A DNA stretch of 47,848 nucleotides from Candidatus Sulfomarinibacteraceae bacterium (GCA_041552055.1 JBFELO010000020.1:1-47848); one strand, 5' to 3'; numbered from the stretch's first letter, positions 28,149 through 47,848 are shown. Notes: generated by a model not told the origin, from the letters alone. A program made the numbers and translations.

Positions 28149-28317
28149 CCCTCCCCCGTTAACCTCCATCGTCGTTGTCATCGACCGCCACCCGTCCGTC
28201 GCTGGTCGCTGGTCGCTGGACCACCCAGCCGCCCGGGGCATGCCGCGATGCGGCTGTACGGCAATACGGCTCCTCCACCCGCCCAGAGCACCCTCGTTAT
28301 CGACCACCTGACTTCCC

Positions 28318-28451
28318 GTCATCCTGAGGGAGGAGCGAGCCGTAAGGCGAGCGACGAGTCGAAGGATCCCCCGAAGCAAGAGCGCCGACGCGATCGGGTC
28401 GTCTCTCCGGAGATCGGAGGGGATCCTTCGGCCTTGCGGCCTCAGGATGAC
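28318..28451. repeat. 134-bp nested palindrome: outer 12-bp inverted repeat GTCATCCTGAGG/CCTCAGGATGAC, inner stems CGAAGGATCCCC/GGGGATCCTTCG and CCGACGCGATCGGGTCG, centred on GATC
   Basis: All three stem pairs read directly from sequence. The element sits inside a ~740 bp non-coding gap (28149-28885). Confidence 0.45.
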
Positions 28452-31037: not shown

Positions 31038-31859
31038 TCAACCTCCCCTCGGTGAGATCGCGTCCGAGGTCGGCTCGCTGATCATCCGCCCGTCGTCGGG
31101 GCACCAGGCGGTCAGGCTTCCACCGTACACACAACCGGAGTCCAGGCAGAGAGCCCCGCCGGATCGGTGCAGACCGAGCTGGGCCCAGTGGCCGAACACC
31201 ACTCGCATCCCCCGTTCGACGATGTCGGAGCCCTCGAACCACGGTTTGCAGCCATCCGGGGCGGCTTCGGGGGGGCCGGTGAAGCCAAGTTCTGGCTCAC
31301 CGTCAGGCCCCACCACCCTCGCGCGGGTGAACACGGAGACCGCCGCTGCGATCCGCTCGTCGCCGCCGATGCTCGCTCTCCACCTGGGCCGCGGCTTGCG
31401 GCACAGCTGCTCGAGGAATTCACGGTCGCCATCGTCATTCAGCCGGTCGCGGGCCTGGTGGGCCAACGCCAACGCATCGTCCTCGTCCCAGCTCGGCATC
31501 AGTCCGGCGTGGACCATCATCAGGTCACCGCGTCGGTGCACGAAGGGCTGCCGCCGCATCCAGGCGAGCAGCTCATCACGATCGGGTGCTGCGAGCACCT
31601 CGCGCAGGTTGTCCTCTGGCCGGGGGCAGAGGAGCTCCTCGGCTCGCGCCAGCAGGTGCAGGTCGTGGTTCCCGAGGGTCGCCACCAGACGCTTCTGCCC
31701 CGCTGCCCAGCGCAGCACCTCGAGCGACTGCGGCCCCCGGTTGACGAGATCACCGACCAGCCACAGTTCGTCGTGGAGAGGATCCCAGCCGATCCGCTCG
31801 AGCAGCCGCTGCAACGTCCGCCAGCACCCGTGGATATCACCGATAACGTAGGTCGTCAC
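31038..31859 (-). CDS. apaH: bis(5'-nucleosyl)-tetraphosphatase (symmetrical) / ApaH-type metallophosphoesterase
   Basis: TYVIGDIHGCWRTLQRLL … LVGDLVNRGP … GNHD metallophosphatase motifs. Confidence 0.8.
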   Translation of the reverse strand: MTTYVIGDIHGCWRTLQRLLERIGWDPLHDELWLVGDLVNRGPQSLEVLRWAAGQKRLVATLGNHDLHLLARAEELLCPRPEDNLREVLAAPDRDELLAWMRRQPFVHRRGDLMMVHAGLMPSWDEDDALALAHQARDRLNDDGDREFLEQLCRKPRPRWRASIGGDERIAAAVSVFTRARVVGPDGEPELGFTGPPEAAPDGCKPWFEGSDIVERGMRVVFGHWAQLGLHRSGGALCLDSGCVYGGSLTAWCPDDGRMISEPTSDAISPRGG

Positions 31860-31914: not shown

Positions 31915-31997
31915 CTCTTCGTCTTCATCTTCGTCTTCATCTTCGTCTTCATCGTTGTCGCTGTCGTCATCGTCATCGTTGTCGTCATCGTCATCGG
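31915..31997. repeat. (TCTTCGTCTTCA)x3 + (TCGTCA/TCGTTG)n hexamer array; reads (GAYGAM)x14 on the apaH coding strand, 56-140 nt upstream of the apaH start
   Basis: cttcgtcttcatcttcgtcttcatcttcgtcttcatcgttgtcgctgtcgtcatcgtcatcgttgtcgtcatcgtcatcgg. Confidence 0.5.
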
Positions 31998-31998
31998 C

Positions 31999-32330
31999 CT
32001 GCCGTTCGCGTCGACCATCTGACACCCAACGCGCCCTCTCCCCAACGCGCTCCCCGCGGTTGCCACCTTCAACAATCTTGGGCGTGAATGACGGCGATGT
32101 GGTGTGCTGAGACGATCCCAAAATTGTTGAAGATGGCACGCCCGCACGACGCGCGGTCTTCGCCCTGCCGTTCACCTCGACCACCTGACACCAGAGGCGC
32201 CCTCTCCCCGGCGTGCTCCCCGAGGGTGCCCCCTTAGACAATGTTGGGACCCGACGAACCGCCCTACCCCGCTGGCGTTGCTCCCAACATTGTCAAAGAC
32301 GGCACACCCGCACGACGCCCTGTCATCGGT
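31999..32330. repeat. Tandem duplication (2 x ~165 bp) of a structured element, each copy with an outer TGCCGT/ACGGCA stem and an inner 13-15 bp stem
   Basis: Copy 1 runs 31999-32160 and copy 2 runs 32161-32330. Inner stems are TTCAACAATCTTGGG/CCCAAAATTGTTGAA in copy 1 and AGACAATGTTGGGA/TCCCAACATTGTC in copy 2. Compensatory changes preserve pairing. Flanks are conserved and loops are divergent. Confidence 0.5.
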
Positions 32331-32459
32331 CTACTATTCGCTTCGATCAGGAGACCCCGGGCCTATGCCCGGCACGCCCGATCTACGCGCTGTCGTGCAG
32401 ATTTGGCCTCGCGCCATACTGCGGGCGTCGTACGGTCTCGAGAAGTCTCGGCTGCGGCC

Positions 32460-34370
32460 TCAGCTCGATTCGGCCTGTTTCTTTCGCATACCCGCTCGCA
32501 GAAGCCGCTGCGCGTCTATCGAACCCTCGTCGAAGAACCCCTCCGGCCAGTCGTCGAACCCACCGAAGCGGTTCGTCTCCAGTCGCCTGAACCGCGTGGC
32601 GCCCTCGCGGCGCTCGGTGGACACCAATCCGACGAGGTCCAACAACTCGTCGTGCTCGTCCTCCGCGATTCGCCGCCGCAACCTGGTGACGAGATGATCA
32701 CTGTGCGTTTCGACGATGACCTGTCGCCCGCTGTGGACACACGCCAGCAGGAAATCAGCCAAAGTCTGCTGCGTGGCTGGATGGAGGTGCAGCTCGGGTT
32801 GTTCGATGGCCAGGACCGTACCCGGCGTGGCGTGGAGCCCCATCACCAGCACCGGAACCAGCTGACTCACGCCAATGCCGACGGCAGTCATGTCCAGCGG
32901 TCGTTTCACGTCGGAGATCGAGATCCGAGGTTCGAGCCCGAGACGCGGACGGTCGATCGTCTCGATTCCAGCGGCCATACCAAAGGCATCGAGCCAGTGA
33001 TTCACGGCCGCTCGGAGCGGCATTCGTGCCGTGCCGCCGGTGGTCAATGGGCAGAGGATCTCGCGCTCCGCGTCTCTGTGGAGCACCGCGAACGCGAACT
33101 CTCCCTTGGTGCCGACGTAGCCCGGTTTGTCGGTCGGAACCGAGAGGTAGAGGACCTGTGGATCCTGACGAAGCGGACCGAGGTACACCACGCGGTCCGA
33201 GAAGAACCTCGCGACCGCGCCACCACCCAACTCGAGCAGATTCGCCGGTCCCCGACTCGGTTCGAGTTCCTCGCCCGGGAGTAGGACGGGGCCACCGGCG
33301 CCGAGGCGGCGCTCGATCGACCGAGCGAACTTGGAATCGCTCACGAGAGAGTGAAGCTGCGGCCAGTATCCGGCGTCAATCGCCTCGGACCTCGAGGAGT
33401 CGAGACTTTCCATCAGTTCGGTGGCCGCCGCGGTGCCGGTCCTGTCCAAGTCCCGTTCCGCCTCGACAACATCGACGATGAGATCAATCAGCCGATCGCA
33501 GGCAGTGGTGGCGAGGTCGTTCATCCGAACCTCTTCCTGCCTCCCCTCGCCCTTCGGCGGTTCACCGATGTGGCGCTGACGAATTCGATCCCAAGCGGTT
33601 CTCGGATTCCTTCGTCGATCCCGCAAGACCTGGCGCGCCCTGCGCACCCACTCGGCGGTCAGCACGGCGTGGAGATCCCCCTGTACGAACACGGCGACCG
33701 GTATCCCCGCACGATGACTGACTCCCACCGTGCGAAAGCTGCGACGCTGGTCGGCGGCGTCGAAGCCCGTCACACGCCCTTCCAGCCGGACGACCGGCTG
33801 GAGATGTGTGCGGCGCGGCGTCACTCCGAGGTCGAGGTGCCGTCGGGACAGCACGGCCGCCCGGTAGTCCAGTGCCTCCACCCCATTGTTCGACATCGAA
33901 TCCTGACCGCGATCGATCGAGAACCTCACGCCTCGTATCCGAGCCCTGCCCGGCAAGTTTTCTCGGCTTGTGTTCAGGAGCTCCACATCCCACTCCATGA
34001 CCGTCCGCTTCGAACCGTCCCGGTCGTTCTCCCGATCCCGTTCCGGACGGATACGACGATCCGGAGTCGAGAGTTCGAAGGTTCCTCCGAGCCCGATCCT
34101 GTCGCGTGCCGTCGCACCGGCGTGACGCAGGTCATCGAATTCCCCCAACTCGACGTACGGCCCGTTCAGGGGAAGATGCTCCTCACACGACTGCCCCTGC
34201 ATTGCTTGCACCACGAGCAGGATCGATTGCAGGAGACTGCTTTTTCCCGACGAGTTCGCGCCGACAAACACTGTCAGGGGGGACAGGTCGACCTGGGCAC
34301 ACGCGACCGACTTGAAGTTCCTGACTCGCCAGCTTCGCAGTGGTTGGACGATGCCGCCAGTTCCTTTCAT
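32460..34370 (-). CDS. SMC/ABC-type (AAA_21/AAA_15-like) ATPase with DUF3696-like C-terminal tail
   Basis: Walker A VFVGANSSGKSSLLQS near the N-terminus. ~480 aa insertion. VLAIEQPELHLHP (Walker B/D-loop) and ETHSDHL (H-loop) near the C-terminus. Tail …FGGFDDWPEGFFDEGS…. 636 aa. ATGA overlap with the upstream gene. Confidence 0.7.
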   Translation of the reverse strand: MKGTGGIVQPLRSWRVRNFKSVACAQVDLSPLTVFVGANSSGKSSLLQSILLVVQAMQGQSCEEHLPLNGPYVELGEFDDLRHAGATARDRIGLGGTFELSTPDRRIRPERDRENDRDGSKRTVMEWDVELLNTSRENLPGRARIRGVRFSIDRGQDSMSNNGVEALDYRAAVLSRRHLDLGVTPRRTHLQPVVRLEGRVTGFDAADQRRSFRTVGVSHRAGIPVAVFVQGDLHAVLTAEWVRRARQVLRDRRRNPRTAWDRIRQRHIGEPPKGEGRQEEVRMNDLATTACDRLIDLIVDVVEAERDLDRTGTAAATELMESLDSSRSEAIDAGYWPQLHSLVSDSKFARSIERRLGAGGPVLLPGEELEPSRGPANLLELGGGAVARFFSDRVVYLGPLRQDPQVLYLSVPTDKPGYVGTKGEFAFAVLHRDAEREILCPLTTGGTARMPLRAAVNHWLDAFGMAAGIETIDRPRLGLEPRISISDVKRPLDMTAVGIGVSQLVPVLVMGLHATPGTVLAIEQPELHLHPATQQTLADFLLACVHSGRQVIVETHSDHLVTRLRRRIAEDEHDELLDLVGLVSTERREGATRFRRLETNRFGGFDDWPEGFFDEGSIDAQRLLRAGMRKKQAESS

Positions 34371-35392
34371 GATCCCGCCTCCAGATTGTGCCGGATGATC
34401 AGCATCTCGGCCCCGTCGGCCATCACGGCCCGCGCCATTGCCATCGATTCACGGGACTGCCCCGTCCAGGCATCGGGCAACGTCAACAGACGTACCGTAC
34501 GCCTGCCGCGCTTCGACGCTGCGGACAGCATGCACATCAACTCACGATCCATCGCCTCCGAAGGCCGACTGCGACCAGGTTCGATCTCGAGAGGTCCCTC
34601 GTACCCGGGTGCCCGGTCAGCGAGCACCCGCTCGACCAGCGGCAGCAACGCCCGCACCCCATCGGGTCCCCACGGCCGAGGCCCGAAACCGCATGTCTCC
34701 AGGCTCGAGGAGAGCACGACCACCGGAACCGTCGCGGCCTGCGATTGGGAAACGATCTCCGCAGCAGCCAACCACCGCTCGATCCTACGGCTCTCGGGTT
34801 CTCCGGTGGCGAGATCGAGTAGAACTGGATCGACCACAGTCTCAGATCCTGCTCCGTGCCGTCCGAGGGCGGTGCGACAGTCCTCGGAAAGGGCCTCCAG
34901 CTCCCTTTGCTCCCGCTCTTTGAACAGCGACCGCTGATCGAGCCTCGCATTCTCCTCTTCGACGCGCGGCGAGTCCGCTGCGATCGTCCGTTCCGCGATG
35001 GCTCCCAGTCGGGCATCTCGCGCCAGTTCGGAACCGAGCTCCGCAACGAGTCCACCCAGCTGAACACACCACATTCGCTCCACTACACCGGCTTCCACCA
35101 TGAAATCGAAGGGAAGGCCGGAGGTCCCTGCGGGCACCACCACGTCCGCGTCGGACGCGAACTCGGTCTCGTTGGACACCAGCGCCACGTCGGCAACGCC
35201 GATCTCCGGATCGAGTCCGATGACGAGCACCATTCGCGGATCACACCGCCCAGGCAGCGTGGGGTCTGCGATCCGCAGGTCACCGATCCGCGGGAATCGC
35301 GGCCAATCGTCATCGACCTCGAGCGGGCGTCGGACGCTTTCACGGAGTCGCGCCGTGCCCAGCCACTCCGGCAACTCCTTGTCGCTCATCAC
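34367..35392 (-). CDS. hypothetical protein (341 aa), middle gene of a three-gene operon
   Basis: No recognisable motifs. Start directly abuts the stop of the upstream gene (35393). Stop overlaps the ATPase start. Confidence 0.5.
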   Translation of the reverse strand: MMSDKELPEWLGTARLRESVRRPLEVDDDWPRFPRIGDLRIADPTLPGRCDPRMVLVIGLDPEIGVADVALVSNETEFASDADVVVPAGTSGLPFDFMVEAGVVERMWCVQLGGLVAELGSELARDARLGAIAERTIAADSPRVEEENARLDQRSLFKEREQRELEALSEDCRTALGRHGAGSETVVDPVLLDLATGEPESRRIERWLAAAEIVSQSQAATVPVVVLSSSLETCGFGPRPWGPDGVRALLPLVERVLADRAPGYEGPLEIEPGRSRPSEAMDRELMCMLSAASKRGRRTVRLLTLPDAWTGQSRESMAMARAVMADGAEMLIIRHNLEAGS

Positions 35393-36505
35393 TCACCCCT
35401 TCCTGCCCTCCCAGGGTGCATCTCCCAGACTGTCGACGACCGCCACACGCATCTCCTCGGCCAAGGGCGCCAGGACGCGCTCGAGACGGCGGAACAGACG
35501 GTGCTTGTGCTTTGCCACCGTCGGCCGACTCATCCCGAGCTGGCGTCCGATCTCTCGGTCTGAGGCACCCGCGAGTTTGAGGCGCAACACCTCGCGGGCG
35601 ATCCCGGTGCAGCTCGACATGATCGAACCCGAGACCTCGGCGACGATCGCTCGCTCCTCCACACTGAGATCGTCCACCGCAGGGCGCAGATCTCCCCGTT
35701 CACCCTGCTCAAGGAAGCGTGGCAGCCAGGATGTCAACAGGAAGGACAGAATTCGGTCGAGATCGGCCACGGTGACCGCGTGCGGGAGTGCGGTGGCCAC
35801 GCCTTCCAGCAACTCCACCAGCACTTCGGTGCTGTAAACCATTGGGGCGCGCATCGTCGGGTTGGACTTGATGGTGGGGAACCCCGTCAGCGACGCGGCG
35901 ACGTCTCTCAGTGCGGCGGCTGAAGGAATACCGGACTCGACCTGCTTCCCTGCAACGGTGTAGCTCCAAGCTGGAGGGGTCGCCACCAGTCGAAACGGCG
36001 ACTCCATAACGAGGGTTTTGCAGCGCTCCAGAATGTTGTCGACGATGGTCCGCTGTCGCCGTCGCGCCAGATGGTGACGGAGCTGCCGCGCGAGTAACCT
36101 TCTGAAGTGCTGAAGATCCGCCGCAACAGCCAACGCGTAGTCGAGCTGCCCCTGTCCGATCAGGACGTCGACGCAGAAGTCCTGGACGAGATCTTCGATG
36201 CCCTCATCCCATCGCCACACCCGGCCGTACACGATCGGGTCGTACCCCCGCACGACGGAGCGCACGATCTCTCTCGCCTCACGTAACAGCAACCGGCCCA
36301 TGACCTCGGATCTGTACTCGGTGACCAGCAGGCCCAGGGCTTCCAGGCCCTGCTGACAGCCTTCAGGGTCACGGTGTCTTCTCGGCAAGGGACACCCATG
36401 ATGCCACGAACCGCTGGCCGGGCCGGCGGGCGCCTCCCGCTGTGCCGGGACCGCGGGCTCGCCACCGGTACTGTCGCCGGCTTTCACACCGAAGGCTGAT
36501 AACAT
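35393..36505 (-). CDS. sigma-70/ECF-like protein: region-2-like segment plus C-terminal region-4 HTH, with long intervening linker
   Basis: …DEGIEDLVQDFCVDVLIGQ… (region 2-like) and …LSVEERAIVAEV…SDREIGRQLGMSRPTVAKHKHRLFRRLERVL (region 4 HTH). 370 aa. Start is uncertain (alternative Met at 36301); no Shine-Dalgarno at 36505. Confidence 0.5.
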   Translation of the reverse strand: MLSAFGVKAGDSTGGEPAVPAQREAPAGPASGSWHHGCPLPRRHRDPEGCQQGLEALGLLVTEYRSEVMGRLLLREAREIVRSVVRGYDPIVYGRVWRWDEGIEDLVQDFCVDVLIGQGQLDYALAVAADLQHFRRLLARQLRHHLARRRQRTIVDNILERCKTLVMESPFRLVATPPAWSYTVAGKQVESGIPSAAALRDVAASLTGFPTIKSNPTMRAPMVYSTEVLVELLEGVATALPHAVTVADLDRILSFLLTSWLPRFLEQGERGDLRPAVDDLSVEERAIVAEVSGSIMSSCTGIAREVLRLKLAGASDREIGRQLGMSRPTVAKHKHRLFRRLERVLAPLAEEMRVAVVDSLGDAPWEGRKG

Positions 36506-47655: not shown

Positions 47656-47848
47656 TGATGGCCACGAAGAAAGCGACCGGAGCAAAGAAGAAGACTGCCG
47701 CCAAGAAACCGGCCGCCAAGAAACCAGCGGCCAAGAAAACCGCCGCCAAAAAACCGGCCGCCAAGAAGAAGGTCGTGACCAAGAAGGCCGCCGCCAAAAA
47801 ACCGGCCGCCAAGAAGAAGGTCGTGACCAAGAAGGCCGCCGCCAAAAA
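47656..47848 (+). CDS. lysine/alanine-rich histone H1-like nucleoid protein, 5' part (continues beyond the window end)
   Basis: GGGAGG Shine-Dalgarno then ATGATGGCC… encoding MMATKKATGAKKKTAAKKPAAKKPAAKKTAAKKPAAKKKVVTKKAAAKKPAAKKKVVTKKAAAKK, with AKKP/KKAAA repeats. The reported minus-strand ORF 47630-47845 is its antisense artefact. Confidence 0.65.

Follow-up and report, generated by a model that had tools for sequence, protein, structure and literature searches.

Among the intergenic repeats described in bacteria, repetitive extragenic palindromic (REP) sequences are units of 20–40 bp with stems of 5–13 bp and loops of 2–20 nt, in which one end of the palindrome bears an unpaired tetranucleotide, GTAG or CGTC, as the tag of the respective families (Di Nocera et al. 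2013, PMC3733652), and a distinct TIRYT group is encoded by Acidobacteria (PMC3733652). The analysis described here concerns a tandem array of structured units in a 47,848-nt stretch of DNA from Candidatus Sulfomarinibacteraceae bacterium (JBFELO010000020.1; hereafter the window), lying within a 600-nt gap between two minus-strand genes, one for an AAA_15/DUF3696 ATPase and the other, apaH, for a calcineurin-like phosphoesterase. It is rather likely that a dispersed intergenic repeat, non-coding and structured, has been amplified locally to form this array, and that the repeat is non-autonomous and similar to REP sequences and miniature inverted-repeat transposable elements (MITEs). The structured repeat family to which it belongs, found in Thermoanaerobaculales-like Acidobacteriota, is previously undescribed.

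The two adjacent homologous units reported in the first-pass annotation are real; they stand head to tail with a period of 166 nt (Table 1), in a natural phase ~9 nt off the boundaries drawn there and with the same content. Direct repeats at the 166-nt spacing extend over 93 nt (31990-32082/32156-32248, 82% identity) and 77 nt (32116-32192/32282-32358, 74% identity), the array matches itself at 72% over 196 nt (E = 2.7e-23), and a pairwise alignment of the units gives a mean column identity of 86%, with the central ~34 nt (the loop) essentially unalignable. The conserved flank blocks quoted in that annotation occur only at these two places in the 47.8-kb window, against 0.01–0.19 occurrences expected by chance. 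An inner inverted repeat enclosing a non-conserved loop of 32–34 nt is present in each unit as described, but its arms are longer than the 13–15 bp given, being 22 nt in unit 1 (32061-32082/32117-32138, 91% complementary, 34-nt loop) and 29 nt in unit 2 (83% complementary, 32-nt loop). Read from the sequence, the stems of the two units disagree at four positions, and at every one of these both arms are altered. At one, A-T is replaced by G-C, which is genuinely compensatory, and at another C.A (G.U on the minus strand) is converted to G-C, so that the claim of compensatory changes holds for these two; the remaining two are paired in unit 1 and mismatched in unit 2 (plus strand, C.C and A.A; minus strand, G.G and U.U). 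Because only half of these double differences are compensatory, the two units alone cannot show covariation. Unit 1 closes both of the mismatches that are conserved in the family (G.G to A-U, U.U to C-G), so that 22 pairs follow one another without a break in its minus-strand fold; selection could account for this "perfected" stem, and correction of one arm by the other within the palindrome could do so equally well.

A metagenome scan with the hairpin core as pattern (ACAATNTTGGG-N20-50-CCCAANATTGT) returned at least 120 matches, most of them unrelated hairpins. About 30 of the matches listed, all on contigs of 58–69% GC, have far more in common than the search pattern. Outside the window, the family has at least 31 copies, spread over about 25 genomic contexts on high-GC contigs of Thermoanaerobaculales-like Acidobacteriota (other loci are cited below by handles such as L122). 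Among the matches listed, a profile search together with a covariance model of the two stems P1 and P2 recovers 33 copies at 74–130 bits; the model was quickly calibrated, so that its E-values are rough, with bit scores unaffected. The full unit of ~166 nt consists of a conserved 5' module, an interrupted hairpin P1 (~26 bp with a 30–36-nt loop), a short second hairpin P2, and a 3' module, with the following consensus in the orientation of the window minus strand: CGCGxTGxxCGGGCGTGCCGTCTTTxACAATGTTGGG-[loop]-GGGTCCCAACATTGTxxxAGGGGGCAACCTCGGGGAGCGCxxxGGGGAGAxGGGCGCGCTGAAATC..ATCGAAxCGAACG. The UvrB, transketolase, and ApaH proteins encoded beside members have their nearest named relatives in metagenome-assembled genomes of Acidobacteriota, Thermoanaerobaculales, and Holophagae. 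Rfam 15, searched at gathering thresholds and at permissive ones, gave no relevant match either on the window gap (E ≤ 10) or on six other member loci (E ≤ 0.1), tRNA and tmRNA scans yielded nothing at the locus, and BLAST of the gap against plasmid and phage collections found no match. Three patterns applied to viral contigs produced only chance matches or none, and a scan of a genome collection that does not contain the source genome, with the flank block CTGACACC-N2-6-GCGCCCTCTCCCC, produced two chance matches only, one low-complexity and one in coding sequence. No description of the family was found in the searchable literature.

Base pairing was assessed in an alignment of 33 members, in which the 26 modelled pairs of P1 are 95.7% paired, as compared with 44–51% with slid partners, and at six pairs both partners vary (for example, GC16/AU12/CG2, UA17/CG11, and GC26/AU6). 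For the structure as a whole, covariation scores 0.153, whereas shuffles score 0.085 (0/500), with the caveat that the alignment was fitted to the model and that the search pattern had preselected the core. Only a few members came in otherwise than through a pattern requiring the P1 core, and invariance within these inner 11 bp is uninformative; the informative covariation in P1 is therefore that outside the ascertained core and that of one diverged copy not selected by the pattern (L120 unit 2), which keeps pairing in the core through changes from A-U to G-C and from G-C to U-A. P2 is a stem of 5–8 bp with a purine-rich 8-nt loop (GGGGAGAG, GACAGAAG, or GAGAGAAG), and its stem variants covary (GCGCC/GGCGC, GCGAU/AUCGC, GCGAC/GUCGC, and GCGUU/GGCGC). 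With three covarying pairs and only 79% pairing in the model alignment, P2 is supported by family covariation more weakly than P1; the P1/P2 structure passed both shuffle and slide controls. When all columns were scanned against all for other helices, only G.U-rich noise was seen besides P1. The outer TGCCGT/ACGGCA pairing that had been proposed to enclose each unit did not survive this comparison, since only 55.5% of its cells are paired across 26 family members, without covariation and at the level of shuffles; unit 1 has ATGGCA instead, and the motif belongs to the arm of the main hairpin and competes with the base of P1.

The family also reveals which molecule carries the fold. Compared with shuffles, either strand gives a far better fold (z = -2.8 to -5.1), the minus-strand folds being ~8 kcal/mol more stable than those of the plus strand, with two hairpin cores of -54 and -62 kcal/mol that consist mostly of P1. 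In the orientation of the window minus strand, the non-Watson-Crick cells of P1 comprise 49 G.U/U.G and only 2 A.C/C.A, and those of the whole structure 67 G.U and 10 A.C. A symmetric duplex site or a cruciform would treat G.T and A.C alike, and hence selection acts on the fold of a single strand, the minus strand of the window. Judged from these sequence patterns, the stems are under selection for base pairing in that strand only, whether as RNA or as single-stranded DNA. The first-pass annotation had left open an RNA hairpin and a protein-bound DNA dyad; selection on a base-paired structure is borne out by the pairing and the six covarying pairs of P1, and the symmetric double-stranded dyad is disfavored by the excess of G.U. 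An array of double-stranded sites, in which the binding of a dimer to the near-palindromic arms preserves their symmetry (the protein being a regulator, a nucleoid-associated protein, or gyrase or IHF, as at bacterial interspersed mosaic elements (BIMEs)), would accord with the length, the strong sequence conservation, and the AT content of the arms, which are AT-richer than the genome, and with a tandem, clustered arrangement resembling that of BIME clusters (PMC3733652). We nevertheless regard it as improbable: besides the inequality of G.T and A.C, the arms are invariantly asymmetric (GCCGTCT vs GCCCCCT), conservation reaches the non-palindromic modules and the covarying P2, and the invariance of the core is an artifact of the search pattern.

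The P1 loops fall into heritable types. Copies in different contexts are up to 91% identical with loops 97% identical, which speaks for recent spread, and the closest relatives of the window copies have nothing but the element in common with the window. A loop 97% identical to that of window unit 2 is found in L122, which has only the element in common with the window and a different genomic context; no counterpart of the unit 1 loop was found among the sampled members. Since loop types recur at unrelated loci, the loops are inherited types and not locus-specific "spacers."

Every copy among the matches listed is intergenic, and the neighbors, judged by sequence, look like transketolase, transaldolase, UvrB, superoxide dismutase, cytochrome bd, a MeaB-like GTPase, ABC transporters, a tRNA, and others. 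Over ~30 loci, no gene family, transposases included, recurs beside the element apart from the same locus in different strains. Orientation relative to the neighbors is about 50:50, and the adjacent gene ends number ~20 3' and 17 5' in our own tally. Two copies lie 2.3 kb apart in L081, and nine distinct sites are found in the metagenome Ga0272441. Consistent with a multi-copy repeat, 17/29 members lie within 300 nt of a contig end, as compared with 6.8 expected. At four orthologous sites (apaH-upstream, tkt/GTPase, uvrB/antiporter, and FHA/isochorismatase), compared at 81–92% protein identity or 73.5% flanking-DNA identity, one genome carries the element while its relatives lack it or have something else in its place; comparison of the filled and empty sites at uvrB and tkt shows no clear duplication, the flanks being microsatellite-rich and diverged. 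The family multiplies within genomes, its copies landing or surviving in intergenic DNA only, with no preference for a neighboring gene, gene end, or orientation and with quick turnover of occupancy between related genomes. The MITE- or REP-like distribution that had been put forward as a check is thus found, with copies dispersed in about 25 contexts.

These data have to be weighed against the alternative of a host-functional structured RNA family, acting either in cis in an untranslated or intercistronic region (as an mRNA stabilizer, a processing site, or a terminator without U-tract) or as a multi-copy small RNA, with host-level selection on P1, P2, and the conserved loops. Covariation in both stems, the invariant non-canonical U.G (14/84) adjoining an almost invariant G.G mismatch within P1, the purine-rich P2 loop, the excess of G.U over A.C that signals single-strand selection, and the stability of the folds (z-scores of -3.1 to -3.5) would all be expected of such an RNA. 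Furthermore, no sigma-70-like promoter or intrinsic terminator was found in the window gap, and the favored fold lies in the minus strand, the sense strand of both flanking genes. Against a host function, however, are the even orientation and the about equal placement at 3' and 5' gene ends, the absence of the element from orthologous sites of close relatives at four loci with rapid gain and loss, the lack of any conserved promoter- or terminator-like sequence flanking the units, neighbors without common function, the persistence of hairpin-less deletion variants in arrays, and the lack of an Rfam match. We therefore consider a host RNA possible but unlikely.

An association with the adjacent genes had also been implied. 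In the window, the array immediately follows the ATPase gene and precedes apaH, all of them on one strand, the ATPase matches defense-system models (best NsnB), and the tandem architecture would suit a non-coding RNA of the adjacent defense-like system (analogous to a retron msr-msd or a type III antitoxin) or a dedicated apaH leader. The three-gene cluster containing the ATPase gene, together with a GGDEF gene and apaH, is held in synteny in species down to 76% ApaH identity (L004, L005, and L007), and for this reason is not a recently acquired island here. In the nearest species (L004, ApaH 81% identical), the order HTH/340-aa/ATPase/ApaH is the same as in the window, and the gap between the ATPase and apaH genes is 325 nt, alignable to the window gap only over the last 60 nt beside apaH; in L005 (4375-4866) and L006 (514-1005), with 76% ApaH identity, a gene for a 163-aa protein binding cyclic nucleoside monophosphate fills the gap instead of the array. 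Covariance-model search of L004 and L005 found no element, and the L004 gap shows no significant trace of short units, its score of 30 being matched by shuffles (mean 29.6). Absent beside the syntenic cluster and apaH in these relatives (81% and 76%), the element is neither part of the candidate defense-like system nor a conserved apaH leader, and its presence in about 25 unrelated contexts likewise speaks against the implied link. Since thirty other copies adjoin housekeeping genes without such a system, and no reverse transcriptase or toxin-like domain was seen among the neighbors of the array, a defense RNA or apaH leader is very improbable.

A purely local tandem duplication, either of an intergenic hairpin or of a gene for a small acidic protein, with "compensatory" differences arising by chance, might be suggested by the presence of only two full copies in the window, by the non-compensatory half of the stem differences, and by an open reading frame (ORF) of 115 aa called by the Joint Genome Institute (JGI) across unit 1 and the adjacent microsatellite. 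This reading is scarcely credible in view of the at least 31 homologous copies in unrelated contexts. The GC content at third codon positions of that ORF is 0.59 (0.59–0.65 for the element), compared with 0.74–0.82 in the real neighboring genes, the 166-nt period is not a multiple of 3, the ORF is out of frame between the units, and it is absent in L004; a coding repeat or small acidic protein was rejected on codon composition and frame.

Returning to the dispersed selfish repeat, several observations weigh against it. The invariance of the core and the universality of the hairpin are ascertainment effects of the search pattern, and the window's own 47.8 kb holds a single locus of the element. 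Strongly conserved unpaired positions (the G.G mismatch, the P1–P2 linker, and the P2 loop) would fit a host-functional RNA as well. No transposase or other mobilizing gene was found beside any of the ~30 loci, and no target-site duplication or terminal inverted repeat was identified, the inverted repeat being internal to the unit, so that we infer mobility only from distribution and from presence or absence at orthologous sites. Finally, the gap (601 nt in this comparison) is 100% identical in five independent JGI assemblies of near-identical strains, with no copy-number variation among the five contigs, which provides no evidence of ongoing instability at the locus.

Table 1. Coordinates of the array, its parts, and the flanking genes in the window
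Feature	Coordinates	Strand	Basis or remarks
Long unit 2, 166 nt (5' module, P1, P2, 3' module), near the family consensus	32156..32321	minus	Period-166 repeats; nhmmer, 132 bits; covariance-model core 32190-32312, 121.8 bits
Long unit 1, 166 nt, architecture as in unit 2	31990..32155	minus	Period-166 repeats, nhmmer, minus-strand fold; covariance-model core 32024-32146, 101.6 bits
Unit 2 P1 5' arm (CGGGTGTGCCGTCTTTGACAATGTTGGGA)	32282..32310	minus	Inverted repeat I1; family covariation
Unit 2 P1 apical loop, 32 nt	32250..32281	minus	97% identical to L122 loop
Unit 2 P1 3' arm (TCCCAACATTGTCTAAGGGGGCACCCTCG)	32221..32249	minus	Inverted repeat; family covariation
Unit 2 P2, short stem (CGCC/GGCG core) closing purine loop GGGGAGAG	32196..32215	minus	
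Unit 1 P1 5' arm	32117..32144	minus	Inverted repeat I2
Unit 1 P1 apical loop, 34 nt, unrelated to unit 2 loop	32083..32116	minus	
Unit 1 P1 3' arm	32055..32082	minus	
Unit 1 P2, 8-bp stem (AGCGCGUU/GGCGCGUU, 3 pairs G.U) closing GGGGAGAG	32028..32051	minus	
Degenerate short hairpin-less unit upstream of unit 2: 5' module GACAGCGCGTAGATCGGGCGTGCC, then 3' module ATCGAAGCGAA...CCGATGACAG	32320..32394	minus	Partial third repeat copy D5; 3-mismatch match at 32371-32388; likeness to short units of L122, L052, and L079
(GATGAC/GAAGAC)n microsatellite abutting the array	31916..31996	minus	TRF
AAA_15/DUF3696 ATPase, 636 aa	34370..32460	minus	Best PADLOC match NsnB, 2.8e-69
Calcineurin-like phosphoesterase	31859..31038	minus	Named symmetrical bis(5'-nucleosyl)-tetraphosphatase, ApaH, in sources
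Three-gene cluster: GerE/LuxR-type helix-turn-helix (HTH) protein (370 aa), 341-aa protein without family match, AAA_15/DUF3696 NsnB-like ATPase (636 aa)	32460-36505	minus	

The array in the window has the order short–long–long, its degenerate third unit and the link to the adjacent microsatellite having been missed in the first-pass annotation; the microsatellite repeats the unit-junction motif CCGATGAC, and similar tracts adjoin the arrays of L079 and L126. Tandem arrays in close relatives (L052, L079, L120, L122, and L126) likewise mix long units with hairpin-less short units of ~75 nt, whose junction, GTGCC|GGGAGAAG, is what deletion of the hairpin between GCCG microhomologies would leave. 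Long palindromes are known to be unstable, and on these grounds the short units may have originated as such deletions. The tandem array itself would have arisen by unequal recombination or slippage at the CCGATGAC junction. The family as a whole would be a non-autonomous, REP/MITE-like selfish element, whose hairpin may be the feature that is recognized or required in the single-stranded state, either as single-stranded DNA during mobilization or replication or in a transcript. With the favored fold and both flanking genes on the minus strand, and with neither promoter nor terminator in the gap, the array in the window is probably transcribed within a read-through RNA from the ATPase gene into apaH, where the hairpin cores could block 3' exonucleases or transcription, as a by-product and not as a dedicated function.

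It is conceivable, though doubtful, that the P1–P2 unit is the recognition module of a single-strand-specific mobilization or processing system in Thermoanaerobaculia-like Acidobacteriota, in which either an HUH/Y1 (TIRYT-like) enzyme acts on single-stranded DNA or a dedicated protein reads the loop types and the invariant non-canonical positions (U.G, G.G, and the P2 loop) of a multi-copy RNA. Were this so, the element would represent a new class of structured nucleic acid and not just another junk repeat, and a dedicated enzyme reading the strand-specific fold would offer a handle on the spread of non-autonomous repeats in the phylum. Apart from this, the analysis removes a tempting but wrong link of a structured element to a defense-like ATPase system or to apaH, and the usable covariance model documents an undescribed repeat family in an uncultured, poorly studied clade of Acidobacteriota, with a second hairpin family in the same genomes. 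Such repeats can mimic regulatory RNAs in covariation screens, lead to false gene predictions, as in the case of the 115-aa "acidic protein" ORF, and fragment metagenome assemblies. At the present locus, all Logan short-read assemblies with this exact ApaH end 81 nt upstream of apaH, inside the array-side microsatellite (position 1 of the SRR22923163 contig, L001, corresponds to window ~31940), indicating that the repeats break assemblies here. By analogy with REP sequences and ERIC, hairpins this stable could also influence neighboring transcripts, in their stability or in their read-through.

Other repeats accompany the family. A second, unrelated family of long hairpins with nested inverted repeats (GTCATCCTGAG...GTCGAAGGATCC...GGATCCTTCGAC...CTCAGGATGAC) occurs at window 28318-28451, within a repeat-rich intergenic region of 1.1 kb, and at 4520-4684 in L145 and L146, where it fills the uvrB/antiporter site that is occupied by the P1–P2 element in L047 and L136. 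In one subgroup (L140, L099, L082, L118, and L087), a separate hairpin module, CCGGTGCCAGGCACCG followed after ~45 nt by CGGTGCCTGGCACCG, often stands 3' of the P1–P2 element, and it is found alone in L142 (4540-4625, tkt/GTPase site), from which it follows that the intergenic elements are mosaics of independent modules. Other subgroups are flanked by varied microsatellites and by a separate GGTGCCAGGCACC...GGTGCCTGGCACC hairpin module, which is found alone in L142; a sigma-54-like reading of the GGTGCCTGGCACC module in one subgroup was rejected by eye, the spacing to TGC being variable and the module a separate hairpin. Varied short microsatellites (GATGAC/GAAGAC, GAAGAACGAA, GTTGAAAGTC, GGCTATGA, GGATGCC, and AATTAGG/AATTCTC) adjoin members: in the window as tabulated, at L079 ~650-720 and L126 ~840-860, and in the 5' flanks of L085, L082, L039, L099, L087, L081, and L034. 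Such microsatellites are also present at an "empty" orthologous site (L144 3150-3255). A 76-nt stretch at window 28188-28263, with (GTCGCTG)3, is 80% identical to L110 348-423, just upstream of the L110 element, and may represent another small repeat family. In L110, a tRNA gene (719-791) lies ~55 nt from the element on the opposite strand. The sole transposase-like neighbor among the ~30 loci, judged by eye, is an IS3-like transposase/integrase gene in L079 (944-1861), 350 nt from the element, and its proximity is probably coincidental. Elsewhere in the window are a full-length molybdenum cofactor (Moco) riboswitch (Rfam RF01055, 43013-43162, minus strand, 68.8 bits) and, at 47688-47848, a 15/48-nt tandem repeat (AAGAAGGCCGCCGCC...) running past the window end, which in one frame would be putatively Lys/Ala-rich, like the tails of histone-like proteins.

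The P1–P2 element is worth comparing with the described classes of structured repeats. In a CRISPR array, direct repeats of 24–48 bp alternate with unique spacers of similar size; here, the variable segment of 32–34 nt lies between inverted arms inside a 166-nt unit, and the loops recur at unrelated loci. In contrast to retron msr-msd or type III antitoxin repeats, the element is missing from the orthologous HTH/340-aa/AAA_15 clusters of L004 and L005. A resemblance of the arms to attC sites was rejected by eye, unit 2 having no GTTRRRY/RYYYAAC cores and no cassettes being present. As in functional non-coding RNAs in general, the structure is supported by covariation; however, neither a conserved context or orientation nor promoter- or terminator-like sites were found. 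With REP sequences and BIMEs, the element shares its multi-copy, strictly extragenic, hairpin-forming, and often clustered or tandem nature, the existence of stem and loop subfamilies, the mosaics with other repeat modules, and an occupancy that varies between related genomes. However, the unit of 166 nt, the stem of ~26 bp, and the loop of 30–36 nt are outside the REP size range, and the CGTC of the element (GCCGTCTT) is located inside the base of the stem (in A5, pairs are formed at columns 12, 14, and 15, with the G.G mismatch at column 13) instead of forming an unpaired terminal tag. Furthermore, the units are direct tandem repeats and not head-to-head or tail-to-tail dimers, and show no bias to gene 3' ends, and no RAYT, the Y1 transposase gene that such repeats flank, was found nearby at the ~30 loci. 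Membership in the REP families was accordingly rejected on size and tag, with the multi-copy, extragenic character shared.

By size, the element falls into the 70–300-bp class of bacterial MITEs, ERIC, Correia/NEMIS, RUP, and RPE, which like it have no coding capacity, are inserted beside genes, and carry long inverted repeats that, once co-transcribed, fold into robust hairpins in the RNA; polymorphic presence or absence at orthologous sites, a property of MITEs, is seen here at four sites. The inverted repeats of MITEs, 15–30 bp long, are, however, terminal and flanked by target-site duplications, whereas that of the present element is internal, conserved sequence extending for at least 20 nt on its 5' side and for at least 60 nt on its 3' side, with a second conserved hairpin in addition; no parent insertion sequence was identified for the element. 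Compared with IS200/IS605, no Y1/HUH transposase was seen beside any copy, and no conserved cleavage tetranucleotide was defined. The window-type P2 loop GGGGAGAG fits the GGGGWSAS of some TIRYT terminal inverted repeats (TIRs), a weak lead, as the match is not conserved across subgroups. The likeness to the subterminal hairpins of IS200/IS605, to PATEs, and to the TIR repeats of TIRYT lies in the fold: all are strand-specific imperfect hairpins with conserved mismatches, those of the described systems are recognized as single-stranded DNA, and their non-autonomous derivatives are dispersed in intergenic DNA as the P1–P2 element is. For REP sequences and BIMEs, as for the present element, a fold in single-stranded nucleic acid is thought to matter.

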